Assembly: GCA_036172245.1 (NCBI GenBank)
Contig: JAYWIR010000042.1
Location: forward strand, 248,001 to 312,000
DNA length: 64,000 nt
Direction of reading: 5' to 3'
DNA from: Raillietiella orientalis
Taxonomy: Eukaryota
The notes below the pieces were generated by a model. The model was not told where the DNA came from. It saw only the letters and a list, made by a program, of their open reading frames with translations, and searched no databases. How positions within the stretch are numbered: the stretch's first letter is position 1; each line of letters starts with the position of its first letter. This document shows positions 1,541 to 59,789 of the stretch, piece after piece. A program made the translations under genes and the position numbers.

Positions 1541-1544
1541 AGTC

Positions 1545-5739: not shown

Positions 5740-6260
5740 CCACAGATCAGACTTCGAGGTCCGTGTCGAATTCCGCCTGATGTGGTGCTTCTTTCTGGGA
5801 ACAGTAGCAGCTGAAAGACCGTATCCGTCTTGTGGGCTTCGTGCTCACTCCCCATCTTTCCAATCCTAACCACCAGAGGGGCAGCCTCGCCTCCCCTTCT
5901 TTGGCTTCCCACCTCCTTCCGCTCGGCGCTTGCCCTTGAGCACCTCTTGGCAGCTGCGGGAATTCGCGAGCCACGGGGGTCTTGCTCTCGGTGCACACGG
6001 TGGAGCCAAGGCGACGCTCGCGAGCAGCCCAACCTTACGGGCTGCAATCCTGGCGGTTGCCAGCGGACCAGGGAAGCAGCCGTCAGGAACCAATGCGGAT
6101 GGCTACTGGGAGGGCATATCCACGGAAAGACTTCACTGGAGGCGCATAATGGAATACATCCCGCGAAGAAGCACGAGTTTTTCTCCACCGTCATCGTGTC
6201 CTTCCAGGAAAGAGAGAAGAACTCCGCCACGACCTCCCTCCCGGAGACTCCAGGTGCTAG
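5740..6260 (-). mobile_element. Decayed LINE RT fragment
   Basis: SWKDTMTVEK...GCIPLCASSEVF...QPPGLQPVR, then LWWLGLERWGVSTKPTRRIRSF...EFDT, in RT motif order across frameshifts. Confidence 0.4.
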
Positions 6261-9200: not shown

Positions 9201-10899
9201 TGGGAGAGTGGGTGGACAGCCCCGCGGAGACCAACACGCCGCGTGCCGGCACGCGGGTAGGCGAGCGACTACCCGCGTGCTAGGAAATCTCCCCACGTGG
9301 CCCATGGCGAGTTCAGCGATGGGATGCAGCGAACGCGAAATCGTGGATATCCGCGTGGACAGCTCGCTTGCTGCGGGCGACCCCGAGGCCAGGGATCTTT
9401 CCAAGACGCTTTCTCGGACAATTCACGTGACGGGCCTCCTCATCCCCTCCTCCTCTTGGATCTCCACCTCTCGGGGGAAGTGGGAGGTTTCCACACCCTC
9501 TCTACGCGGCCGCGCCAGCGCCCTACTCTGCCCCTGCCGCCGATGGCGAGCAATGGCCAGGAGGGAAGAGGAGGCGGAAGTCGCGGCTCTGCCCCTCAAG
9601 GAAGGACCCTGGGAAAATCATCACTCCTATCTCCTGGAAAATACAGGCACGTACGATACTTTGGTTGATTCTGTTTTGCTCGATCAATATTCGTGCATGA
9701 ATTCAAAGATTTCCAAGCAGAATTATAAAGATAACGCCCTTCTTCCCCTTCCTTTCCCTGTGCGGTCCGTCAGACCCCGAGGGCTGACGACGCTCCTCCG
9801 GGAGAGATCACCCGCTCCGCGAGGCAACTTTCCCCTCTGAGGGCGGCTCTTGGCTGGATCCGGCGCTCCTCCCCTCAGGTACCTCTTGCGTTGCTCCTCT
9901 CTCTGAACTGAGGGCATTCTTGTTTGGAGGAACGCCCCTGGAACGGGGAAGACATTCTTCCCCCCCCCCCTCCCCGAGGCATCCTTTCTGTCCTCCCTCA
10001 GGCGATCGAATCCCGACCAGTGGCTCTCCCCAAGGGGTCTCTCCCTCCCTACCTCTGGCGGCTCCTGGGGGCTCCTTCCCCGGTTGGGACCTCCAGCGTT
10101 CCACCCTCGAGAAAGAGAATGCAGCCTGAACTACGCCACCCGGGAAGGTTCCCATGGATCCTCCTCCAGGGTCCGGTCATCCGAAGGGTGGGAGGTCACC
10201 GCTCCCGTCATCTCTCCCAACTCTTCGCTGCCACGCCCTCCGGCGCTCTCGCAGGTGGCAAAGAACTTTCTCCACCAGGCGTCGTCCGTAGCGGTCGCTG
10301 TTGTTGCCGCCCACGCGCGGTCTCAGGGTCCATCCTAGACGGGCGCTCCTTAAGCCCCCCCGACGTCGTAGGGCCTGAGACCACGGGATCGTGAGGGTTC
10401 CTCTTCTCCTCGGGCCAAGATTCCTCCTAGAGGAAGACGGGGAGCCCGGGAGGGACTCTCGTCTGCCGTTCCGGAGTCCTCGAGGGCACGCGCGAGTGTC
10501 CAGAAGTCACATGGATGCTGCTAGGAAGCACTGGACAAGATTGTCTCTGCCCCCTCTCGCGAGAAAGACCCCGGCAGCCGTTTCCCATCCTCAGAGGGGA
10601 GGGTCGCGCTGCCCGTTTGGAGGGCTGACCATTCCTCACGGACAGTCAAGGAGCGGGAGGTCGCGGACGGCAACCGAGTCCCCAGAGGCACCGCGACTAG
10701 CCAGCCTCCTGTGATCCCCTGAACCGCCTCGGAGAGGGCGGACCCTACGCGACCTGGGTGACCAGGCGCGCATTCCGACCTTTGAGCGGGCTCGAGGGGC
10801 CTTTGACCCACGGGGGTGCTCATCCCCGGACGGCACATCCCGCTGCCCAGGCTTCCGGGACTTCGAGTCTACCGCGGGCACGACCCGGCTTACGCCCCC

Positions 10900-13240: not shown

Positions 13241-16200
13241 GTGAGTCTCGCATTGGTACAAGAGACGGTGGCTGAACGATTAAGGACTCCCTTCCTGGAT
13301 TCCATCCGCGCAGGCTTCCTCAAAACACGCGAAACGGCTGCTCTTTGGTCCATCTTTACGCGAGATCTCGAAGGGCGGAAAAGTTTCGCCTCCTCCCCCC
13401 ATCCCGGAATAAGGAGCTGTGGCTCGAGGGCCTTGCGGCGACGTCGCAAGGGTCAGCTCGCCCTGCGGATGCGTGTGGACGTGCAAGGCGCGGCAAATTG
13501 CGACGCGATGCAGTACATTAATCCACGAGGACGGAATCGTGTGCCCTCATGGCTTAATCAATGAATGGATGCATCGCTTCCTCTATTATTAATTGCTTTC
13601 GAGCTCCTCAGCCAGTCAGTCATTTGTTTCAGCATGATGATAAACAAGTTTAAAGATCACTTTTATTTTGTTCCGGAGAACTCGCTTGACAAGCAGCTGA
13701 CTTCTTCGTGTGCTAATTAACATCCGGCCCGAACACGTGGGATTAACGTGACGACATGTTTTCGTAACAATGAACATCGGAAAGGACTATCAAAGCGCGC
13801 GTCTTCTTCGCTGTCACGCGAATGCTGATTTTTCCTTTTTTCCAGAAGTTTACCCGAGAGAAAATACACATTCACACATAGGTATGTGTGAAAAAAAAAA
13901 AAAAAAGAAAAAAGAAAAACAAAGCAAGTGGATCAGACTCCCGGCAGGGTGTTTTTGATGCGATTTAAATGGATGTCACGCTGCTTTTCAATCCTTCCCC
14001 TAGATAAGCCCCGATGGAACAAAACCGAACTCAAGAAGATGACGGGATTCCAGAGACGCGTGACCTTTGCGGACAACTTGCCGTCCACAGGAGTGGAAAA
14101 TTTCCAGCCAGAATGCTAGGGCCGTGTCTATTTTCCCTGTGGACACGTGTGGATCGTTGAATTCGCGAACATCTGACAGATCGTCCTCATTACCATGGGC
14201 TTCGGTACTCGAAGAACGGTTCCCTCATGATGCATGCTGTTAATTAAAAGTCACCCGCTCTGAGCCAGCTGCGAATGCCAACGTTCTCTCCGTGCAAGAG
14301 CTGCTGCGGTGGAAGAATGTGCTCGGAACGGAAGTACTTGCGTCGTCTCCTTCCCCGAACATACCTTCAAGCGGGCTTACCATCGGTGTGCTTCGCGCAG
14401 CATCCCAATAATTCACTGCCGATGACGGTTTCGTTCGAACCCGTAATCGGACCCGGAGGCTGACGTGGACGCAAATCACAAAGTTTTTGTCACCGCAGTC
14501 GGAGAAATTGCTGGCGAACGACAGGGCGCGGAAAGGCTCGTCGCCGATTCCACGCTCTTCGCTGCTCTTCCAGCGCTCCGTGCTCTTTTGGGCGTGCAGC
14601 GGAGATCGCGTCTTTCATCGACACCTGCCACCGCTAGTAGGAACGTTCTTTCTCTTCTCCCCTCCCCTCGTCCTCCCCCTTTTTCCCTTTGTTTCGGCCT
14701 TCCCGGTCTTCCGTCTACCCTCTCCGGTGCTCGTCGAAGTTCCGTGTTCGTCCTCCCGCGATGGCCGCAAACGTACTTGAGCCGACGACGTTGTCGTTAT
14801 CCATTCTCCGAGCAGGCAGCATCCGGAGTGGACCAGGAGGGGTAATCCCGAGCTGTCAAAAGCCTACGGTCGTTCGAGAAGTTCGTGCGAAAGACGTCAC
14901 TCGGGAATGAAGCAGAAGGTACGACGTCCCGGCGAAAGAAAAATAAGGAAGAAGAAAAGAAGAGGAAAACGAAGATTCTGGAGGCAGAATATGGATCCTG
15001 AGGTGTGCATCCTCTCCCTCCCCTTCACACACACACCCCCTCCCCACCTTCCGCGCAGGTGGTTGCATCGTCCGTCCACAGAGTCGTCCCGTGGTCTCGT
15101 CCCTCTGCATAGGGAACACGTGGAAGAACGGGTTTCCTCAGTTTTTGGGGTTCTACGCGGAGGAGCGGGGGAGCAGCTCGCGGGTCCGGTCGAGGTTTTC
15201 CCGCTCTTGCGTGAGGAGATGCACGGAGAGTTGATAGGTCTCGTCCTAAAAATAACCCGCAACGAGTCGAGCTGTGTGTCGGTTCTACCACAGGAAGCGC
15301 ACAGGAAAAAAGATGGTATCGATTTCTCCTCCGATCGCTTTTTCTCTTCTTCCCAGCTCGACTTCACTTTTGTCATCACTCGCTGGCATCGTCGATGGAG
15401 GAAGATCAATAGAAGGGGGAGCGAAGGAGAGTCGATCTCCTCTGACTTCCTGGATGGGGAAGAGCGGCGTCGCGTGGTCGAGAGGGTGTGCGCGCGCTCT
15501 CTCATCCGGGGCTCACGTCGGGATCCCGCCTCCATCCTGCCCATCTCTTCCGAAGAGGCGACTCGTCCGCACCGGAGATCCGCTTCTGGCGCGAACGCCC
15601 TGCCCCCCGCTGGAAAATCGTGAAATCTCCAGAGAAATTCCATTTCGGGGCAGCAAAGCCACAGGGAGGAGCGTTCGGATGCCTGGGGGTGGGGTGGGGG
15701 TGGGGAGTCGAAGAGACCGGGCATCTTCCAGCCCCACGTGTGTTTCGCCCCCTCAGGGTCCTCGATGGCTTCTGGAGTGGGCAAAGACCATCTCGGGAGG
15801 AGCAAAGCTTCTGAGAGGACGTCCCGGCGCGATCCCCGCGTGCAGTCTAGGAGAGGGGGGTTCCTAGAAAGGCGTCCTCTGGGAACGTTCAAGAGCGTCG
15901 GGATGCCAGAGGCTTCTTCCGGTCACGTGGCAGCAGGCGAGACGCTGCTGTCTGGGAAAGGAAGCGCGAACTGAGCGCCGGGCGCGCTAGGGATGCAGAA
16001 ATAGAAATACAGGGACCGGGATAAACAGCGCATCAGCTGGTGCCCGGCTTTCGCCGCGAGCCACAGGTAAAACCAGGCCGGAGGATACGGCACTGCTGCG
16101 GAGCCATCGCTCGAAGCAGCTCTTGACGTCGCCTGGAACGGTGAAATGGAGAAGGGAATCGCCGGCGCCTCCCTTCCCCCCTCTTTCCTTTTGGTTGACT

Positions 16201-30500: not shown

Positions 30501-33500
30501 TTGAGGTGATGATCGCGTAATCCGTTCCCTGGAGATGGTCCCCGGGCAGAGCGATTCATTGCGGAATGAAAACCACGGTTGTCTACGTGTCAGCAGAATC
30601 GCGGAAGGAGGATAAGAAAGCATGAGGAGAAAAAAAAAAAAAAAAAAAAAAGGGAGGCACCGAGATTCGATGCGAGAGAGGCTTGGAGTGGTGAAAGTTT
30701 TGCGGGATATTTCGAGCTTCGAAGGCGGTTCGATCTTCCGAGGCGCAGCGTATTACTCACGCGAAAAGATCCACGGTGAGGAAGAGAATGTGTGCAGAAG
30801 AATGTTTTCTATGAAAATTTTCTTCCCACGCTGTATCATTTGTATCGATAGCTCAGTGAGCTTCCTTTGGATCTTTAACGGCATTTCCGGGTTATTATTT
30901 GCTTTCGCAGAGTTCTGAAGTTTCCAAGTTGGGAAAATGAGTTGCAGTTTCCGATGACACCATCGGCTAAAATCAAGGAAAGTAAAGGAACGGAGCGGAG
31001 AGAAGAATACCAAATTACCATAGTAGTTTTCTGGCATTTATCTGGGAAAAGCAGGCGTCTTCCAATACAGCAGCAATCCGTAAGAGGGTTCTGGAAAAAA
31101 AGAAAAGAGAAAACAAGGCTGCTGCTTGTCGATGGACGAATGGCACCAACCAAGACGAGGGAAAAGCAGACTCGGATAAAACACATCCATCTTTGGGTGA
31201 TGTTACTAACGTAACGAACGCTCACCGCGGTATCCCGGAAAAGGGGAAGAATCTGAAATTTGCTTCCCGGTTTGCTCCATTTCGAACAAAGAAGATTTTG
31301 GATCAGCTGTTTTCGCTATGCGTTCCTCTATGCGCTAAACCTTTGAAGCCTTATGGAAGAACAACATTAGGGTGTCCGGGAAGATTCCGAGATCTTCCTC
31401 GAGGGAGGTAGATTCATGACCTGCGATGTGATGCCAGGATATCTAAGGGAGGAAATAATTATGGAATACAATCCTTGTTCTCGACTAATTTCATAGAAGT
31501 TCGCTGTGGTTCTTTCGCGTGTAGAAGGACCCATGGAGGACACATTTGTGGACAGATTTACTCATTCTTCCTAGCAAATAACTCAACGGTCTTTCCAAAG
31601 ATAACCCAAAGAGTCCGTACACGCACGGTAGTACGTGCGTGTTCACATTCTTTTGGTTGTCCCCTGCTGCTGTCAGACTGGAGGGACGAACCCGACCTAC
31701 TTCAACAGTTTTAGAGCACACACCCGAAGTGACGAGGTCACAAAATCTACTACTTTTCCTGACCTGCGCCGTCAAAAGAGGCTGGGGTTTATCCGTTACC
31801 GCCAAAGAACCTTCTTATGCTAGAAGCTCAAGCATTGCACCTGATTCCCGATGCGGGATACGTGAAAGAGCGAATGGGGATAGTCGGGGTCTTGGCAAGG
31901 TACCCGTGAACTTCAAAGCTGGATAGCTTCTAAAAAAGTGTTGTGCCGAATCGTGTTCGCGGTTGTCAGCAGCTTTCTCAAAAGGGCGGCCTGAGCTGGT
32001 TGGAAAAGGGGGGGATGTAAGAGATTTCTTTGTGTGCAGCTGCACAAGAATACGAAGGAAGGAGTTGAGGCTGTTGGTATCGGACACAAGGGAGTCGAAT
32101 GCTTTGTCTCTATGGGATTTTTCCGCTAGTCAGATCTCTTTGGCATCGAGCTCTCCCTCGCTTGCTGTCTCTGAGCACTCTGCGAACCACATTTTGATGC
32201 GCGTCGCTCTTTGCCGTCTCAGAGGAACCAAATCCGTCCCAACGATTCAAAAGCCATCACAGGCTCGGTCTCCGCATTAAAAAAGGGATGGATGCTGCTT
32301 GTCAATGGAGCCCGTTAAAAACATAACTAAGGATAAGTTCTTCCATTTGCTTTCATCCAAAAATGATCTCTGTTAGAGGATTTCATTTTTTTAATTATAG
32401 CTTAAGAAGATGTTAAAATTACATTTTACTCAACTACAGTTGTGTTTTCCATATCTTGCCATCAGGGGTATGAGAAAGAAGAAATGGTGCAACTCACGAT
32501 TAGCCAGCCATCTGATCACCTTCCGAATGGTTCTCTTTCCAGACAAGCTGTACTGCCCGAGGATATTCGATGGATGGTCTTGCTGGAACCATACCGAATC
32601 CGGGAAATATGCGTTCGCTCCCTGCCCTCACTTCATCCAAGGCTTCCTGCCCGACAGTAAGTGCCAAGCAAGCTGATGGTTGTGTGCGTGATGGCTTCGC
32701 CGTGCGGTCAACCGGCAGTCTCCTCGGGCGGATGGAAAGGCGTGGTTCTTCGAGTGAAACCATCATTGGTTTTCGATGCGGTCAACAACGAGAAATGAAA
32801 GGGAAGCGTTGGGTTTTTTTTTTTCCCCCCCCCCATTTGCATCAGTCACCGCGTGTCCGGAAACCCAACGGCGAAGCTTTGGCTTCGCCTAATCTGCGTT
32901 CACGTGCAATCCGAGAACTGGAAACTGGTCATCGGAACAACTGATTCAGGTTCAGTTCGGAGGATGGGCGACCGCGCCCGATGCCGGATGAAATCGAGGA
33001 GACGAGTTTGCACCCTCATCTACCCCGAAACTGCGATGCGCTGGGTTCGTGAGAGGAGGTGATGTGATGGAGCGCAGATGTTGAACAGGATGGGCTCCGT
33101 CGCACTGTGTTCAACATCCAGGCGTTCACCGTCAGTTGCTAAATGGAGACGACCAAAAAAGTCGAAAGCAAAGCCGAAAGAATTTTGTAAATTGAAAGGG
33201 ATCCTTCCGAGAAGGGTGATCATTATTATCGGGAAAAAGCATCATATTAGTAGAAGTTGGTATATTATAGAGGGAAGATCGATTCATCCGAGTTATTGTA
33301 ATTAACGTCGAGCCAGCGAAGGTGCTGGGCCGAGAGCGCACAAGTGAGAATGGTAGCAGAAGTCCTCTTGAGAATAGTGTAGTACGAATGAATTATTTAT
33401 CGTTGTTACCTGGAAATGGTCCGTGGGGCATAATCATTTCTTCCCAAAAGACACGTTCACTTCAAACAGTGATAAAGCGCGAACACAACGCTCTTAATTC

Positions 33501-36500
33501 TTGGTAGCGATGACGCTGCGTTCAAAGGCATCAGCGGGTTGTTTGGTGAGCAGTCGTGAGAATAGCAGAATTTCTGTGGACACTCCGTGCAATGCGGTTG
33601 GATTTTTGATGCGTTCTTCGAAAACGGAAAGCCTTAGGGAGATGACATCAGAGATGCTACAGGGAAGAATTCGAATGTGTGAAGGCGCGCTCTTTGAACG
33701 AGAGTCTGCAAAACGGAGCTTCTCTCTTCTCTTTCTTGCCTGCCAGATGGGACACCCAGCAGCCACGTAGGGACTGGTTGCACGCAATGGCTGCCGGGAA
33801 GGCGCTCAAGTCCACGGGTTCGATGCTTGATGGACGCATTCCACTCATGGAAGGCGAAGGCGAAGTCTCTGAGCATCGTCACGCGGTTCGATGAGAAGAC
33901 TTCCAGACGAAGGGCAGGCACAACCGCGTGTGCACGTGTGACCGGAATAGGAGAGTCGTGTGCACATTTTGGCCGCCGTCCTGTGCATCACCATGATGGC
34001 TCGCAAGAACTTTCAACCGATTTTTGGTTCCTCAAGATGGATGCTTTCGGTGGATCTAGTCATTCGAGAGAGTTCTGCGAGAGAATGGTGAAATCGGCAC
34101 GTGACAGACGTTGATGGCTAGAACTAAGGATGACACAGATTTGTATCCAAAGAGTGAATGCTCCAAAGCATTTTTCCAGAAGAATGGACGAGGGATTCAG
34201 GGAGAAGTTATAGCACTTCACATCATTTAAGCATTATATGTAAGATCATATCAGGATTCGATTTGAGCATGTAACTTTTTGCAAAATAATGTAAATCACG
34301 TGACGTAGACGCACATGATGCGGTGTCCTAGTTGAGCAAAAATATCTATGCGACGCCTAAGACTGAGATCAAAAGTCTGATCAAGACGCGTCCTAATTTG
34401 GTTCTAGCTGCTCTTGATGATGTTTTTCAGTAGAACTTGATAATTCTTGTGCGAGATGAGATGAGCGGGACAGTGGATGTGGTCGGATGGTGAAAGAGAG
34501 AATGAAGGAGGCGAAGGATCTCTGATTCCATCTGACTTGCAATGGTTCTTTTCCGATTCAAATCATACAGTTTAAATTGCTCTGGCGTTAAATAGTCCTT
34601 AATAGTATCTGGCGTTCTGTTTAGATCAGTTGCATGAATCGCTATCTGAGCATTTTTGACCTTTTTTACGTACTGACGAGGAGAATTTGGTAAATGTTTA
34701 TCGCCATATAATGACTTAATTGACTCTCTGATCGAGTTTATAGCCTCATCTGCAATACAAAATCCCATCTATATGCATGGGTAGACAGACGAAGGATATT
34801 ATCGTGGTCACGGCATTTATTTGGTACAAACGAGGTGAGGATTAATGAGGTGTGGCTGAACTGTGAGAGAATAGTGAAGGGAAAGTAGGCAGCCTATGCA
34901 CCACCGCCACACTGGGATGAGTTTCGGACACCCTAGATCACAGAAGCAGGAAAGGAGCATCTCGCGGGCAAGGCATGCAAGGCGAGCGGAGCGGAGGACA
35001 GACACGAAGGTCAAAGCGAGGAAAAGGTCAGACTCCTGACTCCTGTTCCACGGGTGAGGTATAAAGCAGCCCGAAAGGGTGCCGTTTCGCAGTCCCGTGA
35101 CGTTTTGTCTTGGGTTCGCAGGACGGAGTGCCTGCGCGCGCCGCACGTCTTTCGTCTCGCTTTGAGACTCGCTCCAAGGGTGAGTGACGTTTCCCTCCTC
35201 CCCTTCTTCTGGGACCAGGAAGGGACATGGGAAGGATCTTCGGGTCACGGGAAGTGCTGATCTTCCGCTGAGGAATCACATGGTGGGGGAACGGGGCATC
35301 GAGTCAGTCGAGGGAGGAGGCGGCAGGTTAGGAAGGGCATGCATCGCTCTCCAGGCCCCTTCCTTGCCCTCCGAGGGTGGAGCGAGGGCAGTAACGAGAA
35401 GAGAGGGTTCGGGCGAGGGTTTTTGCGCAAATATGTCGCCTTTTGCTCTGGTGTGTGGAGGATCTCCAGCGTTCTGCAGCAGACGCCTTTCCTTCCGCAT
35501 TCAACTCAGGTCGCTCGTTGAGCGACCGCATTTCAGTGACCCAGTAAGTTTATTCGCAGATCGCTGATCCGCTCTGGATGGTCAAGGATGGTGCCGACTG
35601 CTCACCAATTCTCGGGAGCGTCGACATTGTTCGCGACGAGGAAGAGGATGAACAGCTGCGGACTCTGACGAGATGTCACAAGGAAGAGAACGGAAGACGG
35701 AAAAATGGGGAACTGTGGCCGAGAAAGAGCAACACGCAGGTGATTCTCGTTCCTCCATCGGGAGACTCAATCGAGTCGGCGGGACACCATTTTGCTCTTG
35801 CTCTTCGGGTTGAACCGAGCCCTGTCCATTGTAGGACAGTGAAGTTTTTCGACAGGAAAAAAGAAGCTGTTCTCTGGACCGAGCGATGAGAGGTGCAAGT
35901 ACATTCTCCGTCAAGTACCCTGCAAAGATAGCAGGTTATTCGGCATCGCGCTACTTCTGCTTCTGGAGAGAAGAAACGGTTAGGAGCGCGTGGCTGTAGT
36001 TTCGCCTTGGAGAACATTGAAACGCTTTTCTGACCCAACTTCAAGACCTCAAGCTTCGGACTCGTTGCGGATCCTCTTCGAAGTTTTCAGTGCAGCAGTA
36101 ACGATCGTCACTGAATCAAGGAAACGAATCGGAAGCCAAGTATTCATCCCTTGTGTTCATGTCTCGGTGCAGTCCGAGACTTTGAGTTCTTCCTGCTGCC
36201 TCCGAAGGCAGCCAGACTGACTGAACCCATCGGTACAACCGATACCCCACTCTTGAGGAGATCCTTCTTTTTCCATCACCTGTGTCTGACTCATTAAGGG
36301 CTCAGGGGACTTTTTCATATCAGATAATTCCATTAACACGGACGGACGTGCCAGTGGGCAAAGAAACAAAAGGAGGAAGAACATTGGGAAAAGAGGGTCC
36401 TTGGAATTTTTTTTCCGGCTGCTGTCTTGGTGTCTGGGAGTTTTTGCAACACCGTCCACTCCTTCTCAAGAATCCCGCGAAGAAATAGACAGAAGTGTGG

Positions 36501-39500
36501 AACACCGATCTCACTCCTAGGTCGCACCATTACAACTAACCGAACTGGACGCAAAGGGCAGTGCGGCACATAGACCGCTCCGAGCTCTGGTTGCGGCGAA
36601 GGGATGTCGAGCAGACTGCACGCTCTCCAAAGTGGAATCAAGAACCGTCAGGGGTAAAGTAGCTACTTCAGCTCTCATCGCTCATCCTGAGTTCGTTCAA
36701 GAGTTTTTGCGGAAGTCATTTTTGGTTCATCCGTGATCGCCTGCGACAGGTCGCAGCGCGTTAGCTCCGTCTTGCACGTGAAGGGGTGCAGCAGCCATGT
36801 TTGCTGAACAGCACTCTCGCGCTCTAACATGTCTCTCTGCCTTGAGCTTTCGAGGAAATTACCCCTCAGGAAGAGACTGCCGTTGGTCAGTTTTCATGGT
36901 TCGCTGAAGACCGCTTTCCTATTTTGCATTGTTCTGCATGAAGAAAGGACTTGCGAAAGGGATGGAAGGACCTCTTGGGCTTTCTCAAAGGTGCGCACCT
37001 ACAAGGAAAAAAAAAAAAAAAAAGCGCTGTTTGCTGCAGACGACTGCCGACTGTCTTTGATCCTTCGAAATAAGCACTGGCCTTGAGGGAGGAGGCGATT
37101 CGAAGGGGAAAAGTTGGGTTTAGAGCTTGTAGCGATGTTTCTGGTTTCGCGTTTTTTCGGCTTTTTTGGTCCACCATCACAGAAACTCTTTAGAAGATAT
37201 TCTTCTTACCACTCGTTCCCTTCTAGAACAATATTTGGGGAGTGGGTGGTCGAACCTGGACTCCTCTGTTGGCGTCTTCAGCAGGCCGAGAAGTTGGAGG
37301 AAGTGGACTTTCATGCCTCAGGGACCGGCCAGCTAGACGCTGTCTTCTTCTCTAAGACAGCCTCTTCTGCTTTCTCCGCCGCTTCCACGGGACAGCGCTC
37401 GTCTCCTTTGTGATTGAATGGTCCGTAACGACTTCAGGTCTCGTCTTGAAATCTGAGCTGATGGCTTCGAGAGTTGACTGAGTGGACGGAAAGGCGAAAG
37501 TTTTCCGGATGCAGAACACGGGCGGACGGAGCAATTCGCTGTCTAAGAAAAAAGAGCAAGACTCTTTCCCGAGGGGGAAGTTCCGCTTACCAGAAGGAGG
37601 GCTTTCGAAGCTTTCGAACAGGTGGCCAAATGCTCCGTCCACGCCGATCCGCAGAGTTCGACGCTCACGTGACGTCAGCGCCTCGTGTCGGCAGTCACTC
37701 AAAAGGAAGAAGGAAAAAAGGAGAATCCAATATTTCTCCTCTCACCCGGTTGAGCCGGGGGGGGTCCACTATTCCTCGAGAGAGAACCCCGCGGATTCGA
37801 CTTCCGCGAACCAAGAATCACGTTCATAGAATGGACTTCCGGTGACTTGGAAAGCACGCCTAGCGAACAGGAAGTGGCGCCGTTTCAGGCCAGGGAATCT
37901 CGTCTTTGCGGGGAGCCGGGGGGCTTTCTACGTGCCTTTCGCAGGTCACGCAGCTCCCCGTGGATCGTCGTGGAATTCCGGAGCCGCTTTCCGCATTGAG
38001 CTCGGTCTTCCGGAAGCTGTTAGCTCCTCCTCCCAGAACGGGAGGGCTCTCCCCTTGTCTGGAGTCTGCCGCGAGCTACGGCGTGATCCTAGCCACCTTT
38101 TGGCTTCTCGAGTAGCTCTGTCGTTTCCGAAGAAGCTGTAATGTTGCAGTGGAGAACGAAACTTTCCACTCTTAGTCCTCCTCCTTAGCGTGTCGCAAAG
38201 AAGGGACGCAGTTTTAAACGGGGAACGAATCAAATTTGTTATCAATTTTGCGTGCAGTTATTCCCCTTTCAGGCAGTTTGGGCCCACCCGACTCTCGCAT
38301 CTCGCGTATCTATTGTCAGACCATTGCTTCGTCGGCTGCCAATTTGCATCTCAGTTTGGCAATTCGGAACGATGCTCTACGCACACGCCGTTACTAGGTA
38401 ACAGCTTACCTCTGTTCCGCTTTTTAATGGCTGATGCAACTCGATGCGATTGCCCCAGGTTTATGTTTGCTTCGGGAAGAAGTGAGCCTAACTTCCCGAT
38501 TCTTCCCGTCGGTTTCAAGGGCATTGCAACACTTTTGGAGGATGGCGTCACTGTTTACAATTGTGGAATGCGCAGAAACACGGGTCGTGAAGCATTCTGG
38601 GCGCTTTCACGGGAGGATTTCTTCACCTTCTTGCGCTGCCTTTCCTTGAAGACGATGGGAATCCTCTAGGGCACGACCCTTTGGAAGTCACTGTGGTTTT
38701 CTTGCGTTTTTGGCTGCTGATTACTGTGTCTGTGGCGTCCGATTCACCTTTGTTTTGGCTGCTAACCAGTCGTCGCTATCATTCTTTTGCTCTTTTGCAA
38801 TAGCATTAGTACGAAAGTGACAAAAAGTGGAAAGAAAAGTGGCTCATCCTGTACGATTATCATTTCATTTTTTTTTTCCCACTGCCCTGCTCTCTCGTAC
38901 GTGTCCTTTTTTTTCCTGTTGAACACAGACATATTTTTGAATTTCTTGTCACTTTTCGCGATTTCTTGCCGCCGCCACGTGCTGATGGTATTGCAAAAGA
39001 GTTCCCACTATAGAACAGCGTCAGCAGCGTGGACAAAGGTGAATCGGACGCCACAGGCAATCAGTCCGGACTTCATGGCGAGGCAGGGCCGGTTTTAAGT
39101 CTCTCGCCCTCGAGGAAGATGTCATCATTGTAGGATTGTGAGCAATACGAGTACGATCGCAAATGCGTCCATCGGCATGAATGACCATCGCTTCCCTCCC
39201 CCCATCCTCCAGCCCTTGCGCGGGACAACCCCGAACGCCTTCGTGAGAGCTCCCAGTCGCGGCGGCTTCTTTTTCTCAAGCTGTTGGTCCGTGCTGACGA
39301 AGGCACTGCATTCGAAGAACCGGTTCCTTCTTACTCCTTGCACCAAGAGGCGCGCGCTCCTCGAACGGGAGCAGAAGTATTCTTCGCGTTTCTGTCCCCA
39401 GCACTCCCCGCACACCGTGGGTCACAGCTGAGGAGAGAGTCCACGTTGCGAGGTCATCCAGGCGACGGGCGAAGGAAGAGAAGACGGGGTGGGAACGTCC

Positions 39501-42500
39501 AGATTTCGAACGCGCTCGCCCCTGCCTCTGCGTTCCTTCCTCCCCTTCCTTATCGGGACGAGCTGCCGTCGTCGACTCTCGTGGATTCCGGCTCGCGCGC
39601 GTGCATCGTCCTGCGCGCTCCAGCGAAGTCTGTGAGTTCATCTTTGGCAGCATCGTGACTGCCGACATAGCACTGCGGACCCGTGGGGTTCGCCTGGGGG
39701 ATCTTTGCTTTCGAGAGTGGACGAAGTTCTTGGGAGCAACAGTGCCGCCATCCCACCACGTATTCCCAGAGACCTCTCTGCCGTCCATTTTTTTCTGTTG
39801 TTATTTCTTCCCCTCTGCGAACTGGCCGGCGCAGTGTCGCTCCACCTGCTTTACCCTCCAGCTGATGGCGCGCTTCTCCGTCCCTCTGACGAGCTCTCGC
39901 GGCGAGCTTCGGAGCCGTTTCCTATCATCCAGCATCCATTTTCTGTTTCATTCTCCTTCTCTCTCTTCCTCAGGCCTGGAGGGCACCCGGGGGAGGGGGA
40001 ACCTCTTTCAGTCCTGGCGTTCGCGTCTCGTGAGTAGGAGGAGCAGCTGACCTCCGCATGTGCTTCGCGTATTCCGCTCGATACTCCTCTTTAACTCGGA
40101 GGCACTTGAGACCATCTTTTCGCATCGCATGTGCACTCCAATGCGCCCACCAGCGTCCGCCTTCACCGGCCGCTTCGCCCAGAGGCTTCTGCCTGCTCCC
40201 ACGTTCCGTCCCGCGGCTGGGGAAGCCGCCAACTCCCGGGACCACCAGCTCCCTTTACGGGGACGCCTTCTTTCGGGAAGCCAGATTCACGGACGCGCGC
40301 GTACCCCAGGGGGAGCGGTCGGCGGCGGCAAGGCGGATCCGGCTAGAAGGAAGGGAGGGAGAGGGAGCGCGCACTCCGCTGCCGTACCGGACCTTCGATC
40401 GTTCCTGCCCTTCATCATCTCTTCCTCCTCAGAGTTCGGCCACAAGCTGTGCCAGGAAGACGGCACCTGGTTCCGGCATCCCGCCACCGGCGAGGCGTGG
40501 TCCAACTACACGTCCTGTATCGACCTGGATGACTGGAAGGTGGGTGCTCGCGCGGCTCCCGAAGAGGCGCGGAAGGCTCTCACAGCGCAGGGTCCGACGC
40601 AGTTCAGGCAGGACGTCAACAGGTTCTACATCATTGGCTACTCGGTGTCCTTGGCGGCACTCCTGATCGCCCTGGCGCTGTACTTCTACCTGAAGTAAGC
40701 CGGGAGGGGTTTGCTCTTTGTCTCCTGGAGATTTGGCATGCCCTTCGCCCTCCCCCTCTGTCAGGTCCCTGTGCTGCGCCAGAATAACCATACACAAGAA
40801 CCTGTTCGTGTCCTTCCTCCTGAACAACATCTGCTGGCTCATCTGGTACAAGGAGGTCCTGGAAAAGTCTTCCGTCATGCTGGAGAACAAGGTAGGGATT
40901 GAGGGTACGGCTATGGCCTTCCACCCCCAGCAGACTCTCTGCCCTCTGACCCCCCTCTCACTCAGAAGGCGGTTTCTCCCCGCGTGCTCCACCGTTAAGT
41001 CGCTCCAGCAGCGCGGCGTAGGCCACGCGATGCGGCTTTTTCTTCTTCTGCTGCTGCTGCGAGGGGGTTTCGCTGCTCCCTAGGGTTCTGTGATGCAGCG
41101 TGACCCCAGTTCCGGGGCGATTCTCCAGAGCCCACGGGGCGGCGGTTGAGGCGCTCGGAGATGGCGTCGCTTGGCCACCGCTGCCTGTCGGCGTTCCGCC
41201 GGCTTACCCCCCCCCCCCTCTCCTTGCACCATTTCCTTCTCTGAAAAGGACATCGTGGATCGAGGAGGGGAGTCTTCGTCGGGTTGCCCCGTTCTCCTGG
41301 CCCGAAGGCACAGCCATACCTTCCGGCAGGGTCGTGCGCGCGCTGCGGATGCAGATGGGAGGTGCAGTGTGGAGACTCTCTCAATGAAGGGTTTAGGAGA
41401 AGGTACGGCTCCAGGGAACTCGCCTCGCCTAGCCACCTGTGATCTTGTGGATGGATGGGGCGCTCTTTCCTCAGGTCTCCACTGACCTTGGCTGCCCCGG
41501 AGACCTCAGGGTCACTGCAGGGATGTCCTTGTCCTTTTCTTCACTCCCGTTCCTCCTCCTTTGCTGCCCCCCACGTGCCCCAGAACCGAGTTTGCGTCCC
41601 CTCCGCTCGTCCCGAGCATGCGTCTTCTAGAGCCCTTTCGGGACTCCTTCCCTTTCTCCTGGAGGTTCCCCCAGTGGTCACTCGTCGGTAAGCCAACTCC
41701 GATTCATCAAACGCGGGGACGGAGGAGGAACTACTGGTTAGTCGAGCGTCCTCTCGCGCGCTCAGAAACCTGTTCGTGGGAGTCAGAGGGTCCGGGTCGT
41801 CACCGTAGTGATGTGCAAACGGAAGGCGTCCTCGGACGCTGCCGTACTGCCCGCCTTGGCGGCTGCGGTCTCCGCGTCTGGCACCAGGCGTCGCAGGCTC
41901 GAATCCCATCCGGGAGAGCTCGCAGGTTTCGAGTCTCCCCTCCCCCTCCCTCCGCAGAACGGCGGCGCAGGTTGGCCTTTAAGCTTTGAGGGCGGCACCA
42001 GTGGAAGCAGCCAGAAACCCCCGGATACCCCGGTTGAGTGGCCCGCGTCGGAGGCTTGTGGTTAAGGCTTCCGCGTGTGGTACCAGGCTTCGCGGGTTCG
42101 AATACTTCGGGAGAAACTGACGCCACTGCGTCGTTGGGTTCCGAGTTTCTCCTGCAACGGCGCTGGTTGGCTTAATCATTCGGGCGTGGCACTGGCAGTG
42201 GATTAAGCCGGAGACCCTCAATGAAGGCCGGAACACTGGGAAATTGACCTTCGGTTCTTCTCAGGAATAAAGGAGTGGGGACTTCCCCCTCCGGTCGTGC
42301 AACGGAGAGCGGACCCCCGTCACCGGGGGAACCATATGATTTCAAGATGGAGCAGGATCCCTCACGGGCATCTCTCCAGTTGTTCAAAGGAGCGGACCCC
42401 TCTGTTGCGGGGGAACCCTCCGAGTCGCCGCCTCTTCACAGAGTGCACAAGGAAGCAAGCGAGAGCGATTCCCTGCGGGAAGCTGCAGCGCCTCTTCTGA

Positions 42501-45500
42501 GTTTCGGACGTGTCGCTTCCGGGTTCTCTTCAGAGGAGCGAACAGGAGCGGTTCCCTTGCGGGTTCTCTCCGGAGAAGAAATTCCTGCTAGCGGATCCTT
42601 TCCGGGTTCCTTTCGGAGAAGTTGAAATGGAGAGGATCACCCCCATTAGGGGAGTGTAACTCCGGAGAGAATGAGGAAGGAGATTCCCTTCGGAGTTCCC
42701 CGTCGGAGACAACCAGGGTAAGAGGTGCGATCCCCCCCGTCCGGGGATATCCCTTCCCAAGCGTGAGAGGAACGGACTCCGAGCTCTTCCTGGATTCAGA
42801 GGGCGGACCTCCATCCTGGGATGTCCCTATCCTGAAGAATTACAATGAATTTGGAAGTTGACCCCCTCTCCCTCCCGGGATTCCTCCGGGAATCAAGGAG
42901 TCGGGTCCATTCGTAGTTCCCCCTTCGGTTGGGAAAGTGGAGCTGCCTGACACCACTCCTCCGGGGGGTCGTCTCTCCAGAGTGCCAAGAAGCGCGAGCT
43001 GCTCAGGGAGTGACCCTTAAGAGAAATTGAAAAGCATCCCTTGGGGGTTCTCTCCAGTGGAAGAACAAGGAATGAATTCCTCGCGGTTTCTTTCTGGAGA
43101 AGAAATTATGGCGAGATCCTCTCCGGAGAGAAAGGGGATGAGGTAGTTCCCTTCGGGGACGGCCTCCGTGGTTCTTTCCCAAGAGAAAGGGGAAGCGACT
43201 CCTTCCTCCGGAGCCTTCCTAGACTCATAAAGTGGTCCCTCCGGGTCGCTCCCTAACTTGGAAAGTCACACTCACCCTCGGTCGGCGTGGACGGTATCAA
43301 AGAGCTTCGTGAGCCGCCAGGCGGCAACGCTGCCGTCCCGTATAGGTCGAAGGTCTTGCTCCTCGCGCGTGTTTTCCCCTGGGATCTTGAGAAGGCGTCA
43401 CTCAACAGATTTCCCATCAGCGTCGCGAGCGGTTGTAGGGGTGTCGCGGACGGAGGTCCGTGTTGCTGTTCTGCATCTTCGCGTCCGTCACGTGCAGCCC
43501 TCAAGACTCGAGGTGAGGAGGAGATGGTGGCGGCGAAACGAAAGAGGAGGAGGAGGGAGGAAGGAAAGAGCCCGGAGGTCGAGGTCTTCTTCCTTCTGAG
43601 AACGCCGCGAGGGGAGCTCCCTGCCGTCCTCGGGAGGAACAGCGCTACGCTCACGCGGCGGAAGGCTCAAAGGCAGCGGCACGGTCAGGTGGTCGCTTGG
43701 GTCAGCCGAGTGGCGGACGTTGCAGAGGAAGAGCCGCCACCTCGCAGCCCCGGTGGAAGAAAGACAGGTCCTGGATCACATGGCAGCAGCTCTCTCTCCA
43801 GAGCCGCTCCGCGTTCCTGCTCCAGGTCACGTCAGGAACCAGCTTCCGGAGAATCTTGGACGTAGACCACCTCCCTCAAGGAACTCCTCTGAGCATCTCT
43901 TCCCCTCCTTCTTCCTTCCTCCTCATCCCTGCGTCATCCCAGGCAACTTGGCTCGGGTCCGGCATGACCTGCCCGCCTTCTCGTTTTCGCTGCTGCTCTG
44001 TATGGAGAGCACGTCATCGACTCAAAGTCTGAAACGGCGCTTCCAACCTCCTGCGGGGGAGGGGCGCGTCACGCACGTTCCGGCATTCGCCGCTTCGGTT
44101 GCCGTACTGGCGGGCCGTCGCGCTCGCTGCTGATTTGCGACGTGGATCCGCCTCCCTGCGGGTTCGCGCGCCAGCAACCGTGATTGTGCCGCTTCGTTTT
44201 CCCCGTCAGTCCGCTGACCTCCGATGCCTTGCGGTTCTGCCCATCAGGACTCCTTACCTGCGGAGCTGAGGACCAGAGGCAGATCATTTCCCGAAGATCC
44301 TGAAGACCGTGAAGACGGAACTGACTCACGCGAGGTCGGACAGCCCAAGGGGGGAAGGGAAAGGAGGGGAGAGGGAATTTTCAGCACCCTTCTCAACGAT
44401 CGCTCAGAGATCGCGCAGACGCTCTCCCTGGCCTGCTGCATCTGCGCTCATCCCGACCTCGGCAAATCGCGCTCCAGCGAAGCTGGGGAAGCCGACGGAG
44501 GCTTTTCAGGCCAGAGCCTCAAGGAGCGCGACTCCCCTGGTAGCTGGTCGGATCGACCTCCCTGGGCTCTCTGTGGAGTCTTCCCGGAGTCCTTCGCGCC
44601 TTTTCTTCTGGCCGCCGGGAACTCAGCCTCGCCCGCTGGACTGCGGACGGCTCAAAAACGTTCTTCTCCTGCCCTTTCAGATCAGCTGCCAGGTGCTGCA
44701 CTTTGCTCTTCAGTACTTCCTGGTGTCCAACTATTTCTGGATGTTCTGTGAGGGTCTCTACCTTCATCTCATCCTCGTGGTGACGTTCATAACTGAACAG
44801 AAGGTGCTTCGGATCCTCTATGTCATCGGATGGTTCCTCCCGTCTGTCCTCGTGGCTGCGTACGTCATTCTGAGAGAGGTCGTCCTCCTGGATGCTGACC
44901 GGTTGGTGCCCTTTTCGCCTCTTCTCCCTCCCCCCTCCCCGCCCTCACAAGGGCCGCCCGAGGAGCGTCTGCAGAGGGTCTCCCCTCTTCCTCCTTTCCC
45001 GCCAACCTCGCGCGCACGCCTTCCGCCGCCGCCCTCCTCCCGTCTGGTTCGTCCTGGACGTCTCAGTCGCGATGAAGGAGTGCTCGCGACGTTCCCCTTC
45101 TAGAGTCCTGCGGCCGCAGGGAACGCTCTCGGGGCAGCCCGGGTTCGGCCACCTTCCCATTCTCCCCCCCTTCCTCCTTCCCTCCCTCATCAGGATCGCC
45201 AGGGTCGCTGGCTCATGGGACGACCACCTCCCGAAGGTGCCTCATAGAGACGAGCCCAGCCTCCTACGTCCTATCCGTTCCCGTGGTCATCTCCATGATT
45301 GCCAACTTCGGCTTCTCCATCAACGTGATCCGAATCCTGGTGGTGAAGCTGAGGTCCAGGAAGATGCCTTCCTCCGCGAGCGGCACGAAGAGGGCCATCC
45401 GCGCCACCCTCATTCTTATCCCCTTGCTGGGGCTCCAGTACTTCATCACCCCCTTCCGCCCCAGCCAGGGCAGCAAGGCGGAGGTCATGTACGAGTACTT

Positions 45501-46048
45501 CGCGGCCACGGTGGCGTCCTACCAGGTAACCGGGGGGTTTCCTTTCCCTCGGAGCGGGGGGGAGGCGCACTTGTGGGTCGCCCAACCTCGCTCCTGTGTC
45601 TCCTCCGAAGGGCCTCTGCGTCGCCCTGCTGTTCTGCATCTTCAACGGAGAGGTAGCCTCCCAGGGGCCGTCTCCAAGAGCGTCCTCCCTCACTCCCCTC
45701 TGCCCTCAGGTCCTGTCCTGTCTCCGGAACAAGGTGCGCCTCTGGATCTTTGTCCGAAAGATCTCGGCCAAGGATCCCAGCTTCGTCGCGGTGAGTCCCA
45801 GAACGCGCGCGCCCTCGAGTCACCTTTTCAATTCATCCCTGTTCCCTCCCCTTTCCCTCGACCCTCTTTGCCCTGCGCCGATGGCAATTTTCCTACACAT
45901 CACCCATCCACCCGCTCGTCTTTGCCCATCCAAGTCTCCCGGAAGCAGTGCGACCTTAGCCGACATCCCCGGCGGTCGGCCACTCCAAGCCCCGTTTCTT
46001 TCCGAGCGGAGGGGGAGAGGGGGTCGTAGCCTCGGAAAAACGGGTTGA
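21490..46048 (+). CDS. Dh31-R: Calcitonin/DH31-receptor-like class B1 GPCR, whole gene span. Join 21490-21580, 32543-32656, 40433-40539, 40603-40694, 40765-40891, 44681-44901, 45237-45525, 45611-45652, 45710-(45790 or 46048)
   Basis: Exons join in phase (1,1,0,2,0,2,0,0) at GT-AG sites into one open frame. It has a six-Cys hormone-binding domain (CPRIFDGWSCW, PCP, C-DGTWFRHP, WSNYTSC) and class B 7TM motifs (ITIHKNLF, NYFWMFCEGLYLH, IGW-LP, RATLILIPLLGLQY, SYQG-VALLFCIFNGEV). The family is secure. Orthology (Dh31-R versus hector-type or another paralogue) and the 3' end are not. Confidence 0.9.
23600..24600 (+). mobile_element. Decayed LINE RT fragment
   Basis: LLLSCDVPAIRGLSSDSLFLRELGAP, then IADGSPCGTKILSLL (GVPQG-like), then AVLDPIVPAYA. 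Confidence 0.35.
24680..25330 (+). mobile_element. tRNA-headed SINE-like repeat (head unit and body)
   Basis: B-box GGGTTCGAATCCC at about 24713-24725, then ~150 bp similar to 41910-42044, then the shared body. Confidence 0.65.
25400..25745 (-). mobile_element. Decayed LINE RT fragment
   Basis: GILKVAFDLRN...LRSMGIDRPMMEAAI...AVNGHS matches the D..KAFD / L..MGI / VNG..S series. Confidence 0.4.
29160..29580 (-). mobile_element. Decayed Tc1-like transposase C-terminal half
   Basis: GTITANVF...QNSVSW...LDWTAHLPNLGITQHI (like WP..SPDLNPIEH)...WISLAQED...FLSI...KNQGG. Confidence 0.5.
30860..31410 (+). mobile_element. Decayed pogo/Tigger-like DDE transposase
   Basis: IFNGISGL (like IFN-DE-GL), QITIVVFWHLSGKSRRLP, RLLLVDG and VPLCAKPLKPYG (like QPLD) occur in the expected order. 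Confidence 0.4.
32543..32656 (+). CDS. Receptor exon 2 (DKLYCPRIFDGWSCWNHTESGKYAFAPCPHFIQGFLPD)
   Basis: ttctctttccag acceptor, gtaagt donor, class B hormone-binding domain signature. Confidence 0.93.
33490..33920 (-). mobile_element. Possible decayed LINE ORF2 C-terminal region
   Basis: TSPYVAAGCPIWQ...IRILPCSISD resembles the post-RT RP-L-Y--P-W region. Weak. Confidence 0.28.
34514..34778 (-). pseudogene. topA: Bacterial DNA topoisomerase I fragment (Rickettsiales/Wolbachia-like), probable nuclear insertion in a receptor intron
   Basis: Minus strand reads MHIDG/FCIADEAINSIRESIKSLYGDKHLPNSPRQYVKKVKNAQIAIHATDLNRTPDTIKDYLTPEQFKLYDLNRKRTIASQMESEIL. This follows the type IA topoisomerase segment YMRTD...KNAQEAHEAIRPT...LY-LIW-RT-ASQM, with a +1 frameshift, a 3-codon deletion and substitutions. 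AT-rich compared with most of the gene. Confidence 0.9.
35600..36300 (-). mobile_element. Decayed LINE ORF2 (end of RT)
   Basis: CYLCRVLDGECTCTSH...FTVLQWTGLG resembles KYLGV-LD--L-F--H...L....WG. Confidence 0.4.
38190..38670 (+). mobile_element. Decayed LINE RT (CR1/L2/Jockey-like)
   Basis: CSYSPF...SQFGNSERCSTHTPLL...RFMFASGRSEPNFPILPVGFKGIATLL follows the RPIS...QFGFR..ST...D..KAFD...GI series. Confidence 0.55.
40433..40539 (+). CDS. Receptor exon 3 (KFGHKLCQEDGTWFRHPATGEAWSNYTSCIDLDDWK)
   Basis: cttcctcctcag acceptor, AAG|gtgggt donor. The WFRHP...WSNYT-C motif is typical of calcitonin-type receptors. Confidence 0.92.
40603..40694 (+). CDS. Receptor exon 4, TM1 (FRQDVNRFYIIGYSVSLAALLIALALYFYL)
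   Basis: gacgcag acceptor, AA|gtaagc donor, GYSVSL TM1 motif. Confidence 0.88.
40765..40891 (+). CDS. Receptor exon 5, ICL1-TM2-ECL1 (SLCCARITIHKNLFVSFLLNNICWLIWY...ENK)
   Basis: ccctctgtcag acceptor, AAG|gtaggg donor, R-TIHKNLF motif. Confidence 0.93.
41845..43250 (+). mobile_element. tRNA-headed SINE-like repeat with duplicated head units and duplicated body, in a receptor intron
   Basis: Heads at ~41845 (GGCTCGAATCCC) and ~42045 (A-box-like GTGGTTAAGG, B-box GGGTTCGAATAC). Bodies at ~42236-42830 and ~42850-43250. Confidence 0.7.
44681..44901 (+). CDS. Receptor exon 6, TM3-TM4 (ISCQVLHF...NYFWMFCEGLYLH...IGWFLP...DAD)
   Basis: gccctttcag acceptor, CG|gttggt donor, canonical TM3 motif. 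Confidence 0.93.
45237..45525 (+). CDS. Receptor exon 7, ECL2-TM5-TM6-ECL3 (CLIETSPASYVLSVP...RATLILIPLLGLQY...ASYQ)
   Basis: The ccgaag acceptor at 45235-45236 is the nearby AG that keeps the frame and places the ECL2 Cys. Donor CAG|gtaacc. Confidence 0.88.
45611..45652 (+). CDS. Receptor exon 8, 42-nt TM7 exon (GLCVALLFCIFNGE)
   Basis: cctccgaag acceptor, GAG|gtagcc donor. Matches the 14-codon TM7 exon known in class B1 genes. Confidence 0.92.
45710..46048 (+). CDS. Receptor exon 9, helix 8 and C-tail (VLSCLRNKVRLW...). It may end at a donor at 45790 or read on to TGA at 46046-46048
   Basis: tgccctcag acceptor gives NGE|V. A strong GCG|gtgagt donor lies at 45791, and the frame also stays open to 46048. 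Confidence 0.65.
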   Translation, partial: VLSCLRNKVRLWIFVRKISAKDPSFVAVSPRTRAPSSHLFNSSLFPPLSLDPLCPAPMAIFLHITHPPARLCPSKSPGSSATLADIPGGRPLQAPFLSERRGRGGRSLGKTG

Positions 46049-58599: not shown

Positions 58600-58900
58600 T
58601 CATGAAAATCTACCAGGCTTCTTGAGGTGCAGGAAGACATGGTAGTCACTGGGCGCGAGGCCAAGACCGTAAGGTGGGTGATCAAAAAGTCCCCATTTGA
58701 ACTTCTGAACAGCAGTGTGTGGAAGATGCACGCTGTCGCGGGGAAGAACAATTCCTGATCTGAACGTTCCACGTCGTCGGTTCTGAATGGCACTCCGCAG
58801 TGTTGAGAGTGTTTCTACACAGTAGACTTGCGAAGTGGTAGTTGTTCCTGGTTCCCTAAAGTCCACCAAAAGCACGCTCTTTTGGTCCCACACGCTGCTG
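58600..58900 (-). mobile_element. Mariner transposase fragment (catalytic domain)
   Basis: WDQKSVLLVDFREPGTT...YC-ETL--LRSAIQNRRRG...HPPYGLGLAPSDYHVFLHLKK. Confidence 0.88.
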
Positions 58901-58919
58901 TTCGCGCATTCCAGACAAT

Positions 58920-59275
58920 TCGGAAATTCAAGTGGTAACTTTCTGATCACCCACCTTACGGTCCTGACCTCGCGCCTAGTGACTACCACGTCTTCCTGAG
59001 CCTCAAGAAGTGGCTCAGCGACTCGAGGGGGAAAGGGAGGAGTTGAAAACTGCGGTGCTGCTGACCTGGCTGAGCTCCCAGGCGACGGAATTCGCTGCAG
59101 AGGATTTCGAAAAGCTTCTTCCACGGTATCAAAAGTGTTTGGGGGAGAAAAAATGGTGACCACAGAGAAAAAGGACACGAGGATGTATGTGTTTAGAACC
59201 ACTGTTGCCTTTTTGTTTCTTATGTTTGTTCTTTTTATATATCCGATCGTTCTTACTTTTGAAATGCGCCTCGTA
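58920..59275 (+). mobile_element. Mariner 3' end with terminal inverted repeat
   Basis: HPPYGPDLAPSDYHVFLSLKKWL...ELKTAV...WLSSQATEF...FEKLLPRYQKCL. Ends in cttacttttgaaatgcgcctcg followed by TA at 59274-59275, a mariner-type TIR and TA target. Confidence 0.88.
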
Positions 59276-59789
59276 GATAGAACGAGCCGGTCGCAAATTG
59301 GAATCCTGCAATTCTTTGCCACACTCGGAGGCCCTTGATGCCTCTCAAATTTCACTCCAAGGTACGCACTGAAGCACCTCCGCAAAGACTGCCACTGAAA
59401 CAAAGAAGCGAAAAATTCACCATCTTCTGCTAGGCTGACTGAACTTTCACCTGAAATGCAGCGTGCTCCGGGTTAGCAAACCTCCCTGATGTATCCTAGT
59501 AACGCGTCCGACTGCTCATGAGAATGGGTCTCCCTCTACTTTAGAACGCTCTTACAATGAATGGTGGGAAAGTCTATCTGCCAGGGCAAGAACTGATTTC
59601 CCCAGATCACGGAGATCACCTTTGCCATGACTTATGTTGAGCGATGCAGAGGGTCATCTTCTATCCTCAAGTAGGCAAGGTAGTCTCTTTGTTCATTTCT
59701 GAGAAGCGATATTTTGTTTTCGAACAAATTATTTTATACCGCATCCTGCAACTTTTGATCTCCTGATTTCTAAGTTCATGAGTCGAGAG

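Follow-up and report, generated by a model that had tools for sequence, protein, structure and literature searches.

A topA Fragment in an Intron of a Receptor Gene

The stretch of DNA analyzed here, 64 kb of contig JAYWIR010000042.1 from Raillietiella orientalis (hereafter the window, always at its full length), carries several exons of an animal gene for a G-protein-coupled receptor (GPCR) of class B. Inside one intron of this gene, and antisense to it, lies a piece of 266 bp, about 89 codons, that resembles topA, the gene of bacterial DNA topoisomerase I (TopA). Its translation runs from the YMRTD active-site motif to ...ASQMESAIL. The positions of all the features treated below are collected in Table 1.

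To characterize this piece, the whole window was compared by blastn with 71 topA loci from bacterial genomes. Every one of the 32 alignments obtained fell within the 266 bp, and the closest Wolbachia topA (locus L001) showed 87.3% identity over 275 columns, with 25 mismatches and 3 gap openings (E 4e-91). The minus-strand translation was recognized by the NCBIfam profile topA_bact (TIGR01051; E 2.9e-19, profile positions 317–404 of 632), and the score of the Pfam family Topoisom_bac was 19.5 bits, under its cut-off of 35.1 bits. Solved chains of DNA topoisomerase I made up 13 of the 14 PDB matches of the same translation (best E 3e-12). An earlier sequence-only reading of this DNA had proposed an AT-rich topA segment at this place, and its identity, position and composition were all borne out, since the best matches of the region are bacterial (Wolbachia) topA and its guanine plus cytosine (GC) content is 36.5%, against 55.7% for the window and 48 and 56% for the two 1-kb flanks. 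The window contains no N at all. Neither a further part of topA nor any of its 2-kb neighborhood was found in the window by DNA and translated searches.

The intronic position proposed by the same reading was likewise upheld, as the hormone-receptor (HRM) domain is split between two exons with ag/gt splice sites and consistent phase. The first of them is bordered by the acceptor ...tttccag and the donor gtaagt, and the second by the acceptor ...cctcag and the donor gtgggt; one base is left over at the end of the first exon, and with it the frame continues into the second. Downstream, two exon regions with parts of a 7tm_2 (secretin-family) domain follow, giving the order HRM then 7tm_2 that is used to recognize class B1 GPCRs. 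The best named matches of the last exon region were insect receptors of the calcitonin/calcitonin gene-related peptide (CGRP) type, for example from Rhodnius and Cimex (41–47% identity over more than 90% of the query). Only 10 proteins passed in the search with the receptor exon, with identities up to 47% over most of the length, which indicates that the host animal is not represented in that protein database. The host gene is classified as a class-B receptor, calcitonin/diuretic hormone 31 (DH31)-like, the subfamily being assigned by the closest matches.

Table 1. Positions, strands and supporting evidence of the features described in the window.
Feature	Position	Strand	Evidence
Decayed Wolbachia topA fragment (type IA DNA topoisomerase)	34514..34779	-	blastn, NCBIfam profile, protein identity
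+1 frameshift, one extra base in a GGG(A)TTT run	34763..34766	-	Alignment to L001
9-bp in-frame deletion, three QEAHEA codons gone	34645..34646	-	Alignment; motif invariant in 24/26 bacterial sequences
Left copy of bracketing direct repeat, AGGCGAAGGAT	34509..34519		Repeat search, 10/11 match
Filler, 7 bases between topA homology and right repeat copy	34780..34786		Alignment
Right copy of direct repeat, AGACGAAGGAT	34787..34797		7 nt past last topA-homologous base
Host exon, first half of HRM domain, class-B GPCR	32543..32656	+	Pfam HRM E 7.7e-10, profile 2-36 of 66
Host intron of 7,776 bp holding the antisense topA fragment	32657..40432	+	Canonical splice sites, matching phase
Host exon, second half of HRM domain	40433..40539	+	Pfam HRM E 8.9e-5, profile 36-64 of 66
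Host exon region, part of 7tm_2 (secretin-family) domain	44678..44872	+	Pfam E 1.5e-19, profile 74-138 of 250
Host exon region, 7tm_2 profile 142-246	45217..45525	+	Pfam E 1.8e-14
Second Wolbachia fragment, 95 bp of presumed pstS, about 32 codons, frame open	9638..9732	+	blastn + tblastx
Possible third Wolbachia-like scrap, start of a conserved 156-aa Wolbachia open reading frame	33357..33412	-	Weak, unconfirmed

Decay of the Fragment

The lesions of the fragment were read from its pairwise alignment to L001, and the invariance of residues was judged across 26 bacterial sequences. All of the lesions listed in the sequence-only reading are visible in this alignment, with one correction: the extra base of the frameshift is present, but its identity as a G is not fixed, as it may be A or G according to the glycine codon of the donor (GGG in 16/26, GGA in 7/26 and GGT in 3/26 of the sequences). 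In Wolbachia, the stretch lost by the 9-bp deletion is flanked by two GAAGCG direct repeats, which suggests slippage. MHID stands in place of the motif MRTD, HAT in place of RPT and NR in place of IW, and the replacements R>H, T>I, P>A and W>R hit residues that are invariant in all 26 bacterial sequences. The codon of the catalytic tyrosine, which would fall in the filler bases next to the fragment, could not be recognized with confidence.

The fragment covers about 89 of the approximately 816 codons of TopA. Full-length relatives have four Pfam domains, and the complete architecture (Toprim, Topoisom_bac and C-terminal zinc-finger) is absent here, where the profile match is confined to the segment given above; an intact frame with the YMRTD and QEAHEAIRPT motifs is absent as well. 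Because of this small coverage, the frameshift, the deletion and the replaced invariant residues, the fragment cannot encode a topoisomerase.

Sixteen bases of the insert were seen in none of the 23 Wolbachia sequences, and 13 of these 16 changes are non-synonymous. Their distribution over codon positions 1, 2 and 3 is 6:7:3, compared with 21:12:36 for the living strains (n = 23, summed; Fisher p = 0.024), and it fits uniformity (chi-square p = 0.44). In the maximum-likelihood (ML) tree described below, the terminal branch of the insert is 0.096 long, against a median of 0.045. Such a pattern is, as judged from these substitutions, that of a sequence freed from protein-level selection, and the earlier claim that this is not a working gene is supported by it and by the lesions. 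The direction of substitution on the insert branch (7 AT>GC, 5 GC>AT and 4 other) showed no clear drift toward the GC content of the host; the mean in the homologous bacterial segments is 35.3% (24 of 26, with L022 and L054 left out), close to that of the insert.

Origin of the Fragment Within Wolbachia

In a protein search with the translated fragment, 328 of 417 candidates passed at E ≤ 1e-3. The 23 best matches, with 67–82% identity, comprised 15 records named Wolbachia, six without an organism name and two filed under insects (Callosobruchus chinensis and Rhagoletis zephyria). The next-best match after this group was from Anaplasma, with 57% identity, against 82% for the best Wolbachia TopA. 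At the DNA level, 57 of the 60 genomes assigned to the genus with a Wolbachia-titled record (here called the Wolbachia genus) were matched with 70–87% identity, and the top four (G002, G029, G043, and G045) reached 87% each; the identity was 70% to a metagenome-assembled genome (MAG) of a non-Wolbachia member of the Anaplasmataceae and 68% to Ehrlichia.

The ML tree (27 rows, 279 columns) placed the insert inside the crown Wolbachia clade of 22 rows, with a support of 87/96. Additionally, the approximately unbiased (AU) test rejected the grouping of the insert with the three deepest rows (p-AU 0.033), namely L022 (Ehrlichia), L054 (an Anaplasmataceae MAG), and L055, which is itself titled Wolbachia. 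By these comparisons, the donor of the 266 bp is identified as a crown-group Wolbachia, and the sequence-only reading, which had named Wolbachia as the donor, agrees with both the protein identities and the TopA phylogeny.

The place within the genus is less firm. The insert was sister to a clade of seven rows, among them the bedbug-, louse-, and Mansonella-associated strains, with a bootstrap of only 59%; this clade is presumably supergroup F. A position with the B-like clade was rejected (p-AU 0.013). Against an F-like affinity stand the C/J-like (p-AU 0.32) and D-like (p-AU 0.11) placements, neither of which was rejected, and the fact that the groups of the AU test were named only after inspection of the tree. 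The donor may, on weak grounds, have been nearest to the F-like clade among the sampled Wolbachia, and the supergroup is offered as a lead only.

Junctions of the Insert

In the assembled sequence, host DNA is contiguous with the fragment on both sides. The fragment is bracketed by a direct repeat, and the last 6 nt of its left copy (34514–34519) are at the same time the last Wolbachia-homologous bases, an overlap that could represent a microhomology. Of 4000 random placements of a 266-bp segment across the window, 30 had repeats that matched in 10 or more of 11 positions and lay no farther than 20 nt from the two ends (P = 0.0075).

The surroundings of the insert (32700–36500) gave no match elsewhere in the window by self-blast, so that no carrier repeat or transposon was seen there. 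The same comparison with 8800–10600, the region of the second fragment described below, returned one weak GC-rich match in the window.

Further Wolbachia-Like Pieces in the Window

The sequence-only reading had called for a scan for other fragments from the same donor, and within the window a second Wolbachia-derived fragment was found. It has 81% identity over 95 ungapped bases (E 2e-17) to a complete Wolbachia genome of 1,145,387 bp, where it falls in a 344-aa open reading frame (ORF). Going by its sequence, we take this ORF to be PstS, the substrate-binding protein of a phosphate ABC transporter. The fragment matched 50 of the 60 Wolbachia-genus genomes with 73–86% identity, with the same query coordinates each time. 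At the protein level, matches were found in 30 of 61 genomes, 23 of them from the genus at E ≤ 9.1e-9 and seven from the rest of the family at E ≥ 1.4e-4. Three genomes, G029, G043 and G045, rank near the top for topA (87%) as well as for pstS (86%). About 307 kb separate the two genes in the Wolbachia genome G001; in the window the fragments are 25 kb from each other, with pstS upstream. Six bases of the pstS piece are unique to it (codon positions 3:1:2), and it is too short for a test of decay. The homology is limited to the 95 bp, far from a functional full-length PstS of about 340 aa. The piece lies in GC-rich non-coding DNA; in the region around it (1–15363), 150 ORFs with a length of 70 aa or more were compared with Pfam, and none gave a match.

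Five Wolbachia genomes compared with the entire 64 kb at the DNA level, and one complete genome compared by blastn and tblastx, gave nothing beyond the topA and pstS pieces. When the AT-rich left flank of the topA fragment (33000–34513) was compared with the 60 genomes of the genus, one weak match of 56 nt was the only result. This scrap, the last row of Table 1, had 46 of 57 positions identical to G023, with four gaps (E 5e-5), and matches in two of the 60 genomes; the orthologous site in F-like genomes, which are the nearest to the other two fragments, gave a weaker match of 75–77% over 52 columns in three of five genomes. It may be a third scrap or a chance match, and it is not counted as established.

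Interpretation and Alternative Explanations

The topA fragment is very probably a nuclear Wolbachia insert (nuwt) that has decayed as neutral intron sequence. Three of the features by which such inserts are known are found here together: the fragment nests in Wolbachia, is contiguous with host DNA in the assembly, and is pseudogenized with relaxed constraint. The sequence-only reading had seen in it the record of an infection and of a lateral transfer in the host lineage, and a past event of this kind is supported by the finding of a decayed topA together with a similarly diverged pstS (81–86%), both of Wolbachia. According to this explanation, Wolbachia DNA would have been released inside germline cells and inserted through end joining at a double-strand break in a chromosome, and the captured piece would then have decayed neutrally in the intron. 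End joining is proposed because the 6-nt microhomology, the 7-nt filler and the 10/11 duplication of 11 nt of flank fit it. The host lineage would have been infected at the time of transfer by a Wolbachia that was, among those sampled, nearest to the supposed supergroup F.

Neutral rates in invertebrates are of the order of 1e-9 to 1e-8 per site per year. At these rates, the 16 lineage-specific changes in 266 bp (6%) suggest an old transfer, with an age in the range from millions to tens of millions of years; this is a rough figure, and an unsampled donor may account for part of the changes. We infer that the topA fragment has no present function.

Several observations weigh against this explanation. 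The junctions are those of the assembled sequence, and a 41-nt string over the left junction had zero exact matches in metagenome contigs. A flanking repeat of this quality would arise by chance about once in 130 cases, and the pstS piece has no comparable bracketing repeat, its best being 7/11. Moreover, the codon-position contrast is modest and based on 16 sites, an unsampled donor lineage may be the source of some of the unique bases (16) and some of the divergence (13%), and the open frame across the fragment, discussed below, could conceivably allow something to be expressed.

The same dependence on the assembly leaves some room for an artefact, in which reads of an infecting Wolbachia would have been misjoined into a host contig; contamination with Wolbachia is common in arthropod assemblies. 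A chimera of this kind would carry a living gene, however, and the piece found here is frameshifted, has lost 9 bp and differs at invariant residues, with at most 87% identity to any of 60 Wolbachia-genus genomes. It measures 266 bp only, with host-like DNA on both sides in an N-free stretch of 64 kb, and it is flanked by a direct repeat. The unlinked and diverged second fragment 25 kb away would require two independent internal misjoins. The argument of the sequence-only reading that decay and intronic position speak against simple contamination has thus gained the second fragment and the N-free, GC-rich surroundings, and an artefact is judged very improbable.

Co-option by the host, for example for antisense or small RNAs of the Piwi-interacting (piRNA) type, for regulation of the receptor gene or for a small expressed peptide, is considered still less probable. 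The fragment does lie antisense within a transcribed gene, a 113-codon frame initiated by ATG is open across it, and the passages on expression in a report on another host describe some Wolbachia-like fragments as transcribed (PMC4046930). That frame, however, leaves the bacterial part for unrelated intron sequence, and constraint was not seen in substitutions that are spread evenly over codon positions and are non-synonymous in 13 of 16 cases. The window gave no match to Rfam at the gathering score, and in those same passages the authors of the nematode study thought such transcripts unlikely to be functional (PMC4046930). A donor elsewhere in the Anaplasmataceae or Rickettsiales, or an unknown relative, is the least probable of these alternatives. 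It would account for a closest sampled genome with just 87% DNA identity and for the poorly resolved placement inside the genus, but it is opposed by the fall in protein identity from 67–82% for the Wolbachia matches to that of Anaplasma, by the 70 and 68% DNA identity to the family members outside the genus and by the rejection of a grouping with L022, L054 and L055. The pstS piece points the same way, with its gap between the E values of the genus and those of the rest of the family.

A nuclear insert of Wolbachia DNA being preferred, a bolder extension of it can be considered, although we regard it as rather doubtful: the window might sample fossils that are densely spread over the whole genome and go back to an ancient or extinct infection, by a Wolbachia nearest to the F-like clade, of a GC-rich protostome lineage that current protein databases lack. 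The fragments would then be shards of one large ancient insertion, since shattered and diluted by host sequence. The basis for this extension is that two, perhaps three, fragments of unlinked genes occur in a span of 25 kb with about equal divergence. If true, the lost symbiosis could be reconstructed and dated from the host genome, as was done in Dictyocaulus.

Comparison With Known Transfers and Significance

Nuwts are well documented, with classic accounts of Callosobruchus and of widespread transfer into many hosts, and what is new here is the pstS fragment and the bracketing repeat. The nuwts of insects and filarial nematodes, such as those of Drosophila ananassae and Brugia malayi, are likewise Wolbachia DNA in the nuclear genome of a host. 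Those that have been studied well arose recently, are large and duplicated and hardly differ from the symbiont living in the same host, whereas the pieces described here are of 266 and 95 bp, 13–19% diverged, broken, and lie in a GC-rich host. Nuclear mitochondrial DNA segments (NUMTs) are captured by end joining at double-strand breaks, with microhomology and filler, and then decay neutrally, often in introns. They share the mechanism proposed for the topA insert, with the difference that the donor is an organelle there and a facultative bacterial symbiont here.

The closest parallel is the nematode Dictyocaulus viviparus, with its degraded "genomic fossils" of Wolbachia. The account of these fragments describes Wolbachia-like pieces with frameshifts, stops and indels in nuclear contigs, some of them inside or beside nematode genes, and reads them as traces of a past infection for which functional roles were judged unlikely by the authors (PMC4046930). 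By the same account, the D. viviparus genome has 34.5% GC and the fragments blend in, unlike the present pieces, which form AT-rich islands in DNA of 56% GC (PMC4046930). The present case was also judged from one window of 64 kb, unlike that genome.

Wolbachia-type TopA records carrying a eukaryotic label, with 76–80% identity to the fragment, are known from C. chinensis and R. zephyria. These two are full-length (803–816 aa) with intact domains, unlike the fragment. The Joint Genome Institute (JGI) protein P0131 (98 aa) consists of a Wolbachia-type TopA piece of about 46 residues amid unrelated sequence; it is broken at other points and does not have the 9-bp deletion, so it is not the same insertion, and it looks like an independent insert in another record. 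In a same-length protein search for orthologous inserts, P0131 alone was retrieved, as a different TopA scrap. A metagenome locus reached through P0131 (L176) is an ordinary contig with intact Wolbachia topA.

The case is one more example of a well-documented phenomenon, with no sign of new function. If the fragments are what they appear to be, the germline of this GC-rich animal lineage once harbored Wolbachia, and they provide a datable marker of that association. The signature of the junctions (microhomology, filler and flanking duplication) would be a small but concrete piece of evidence on the entry of bacterial DNA into the chromosomes of animals. In practical terms, contamination filters that cut all "bacterial" matches would remove real host intron.

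Other Features of the Window

The ratio of observed to expected CpG is 0.90 over the whole window, with no sign of CpG depletion. Positions 1–28000 are very GC-rich, often with 60–69% per kb, and contain many long spurious open frames. A mariner-type transposase remnant was also detected on the minus strand (58600–59472), with a partial DDE domain matching Pfam Transposase_1 (E 9.2e-6) in an open frame of 290 codons.

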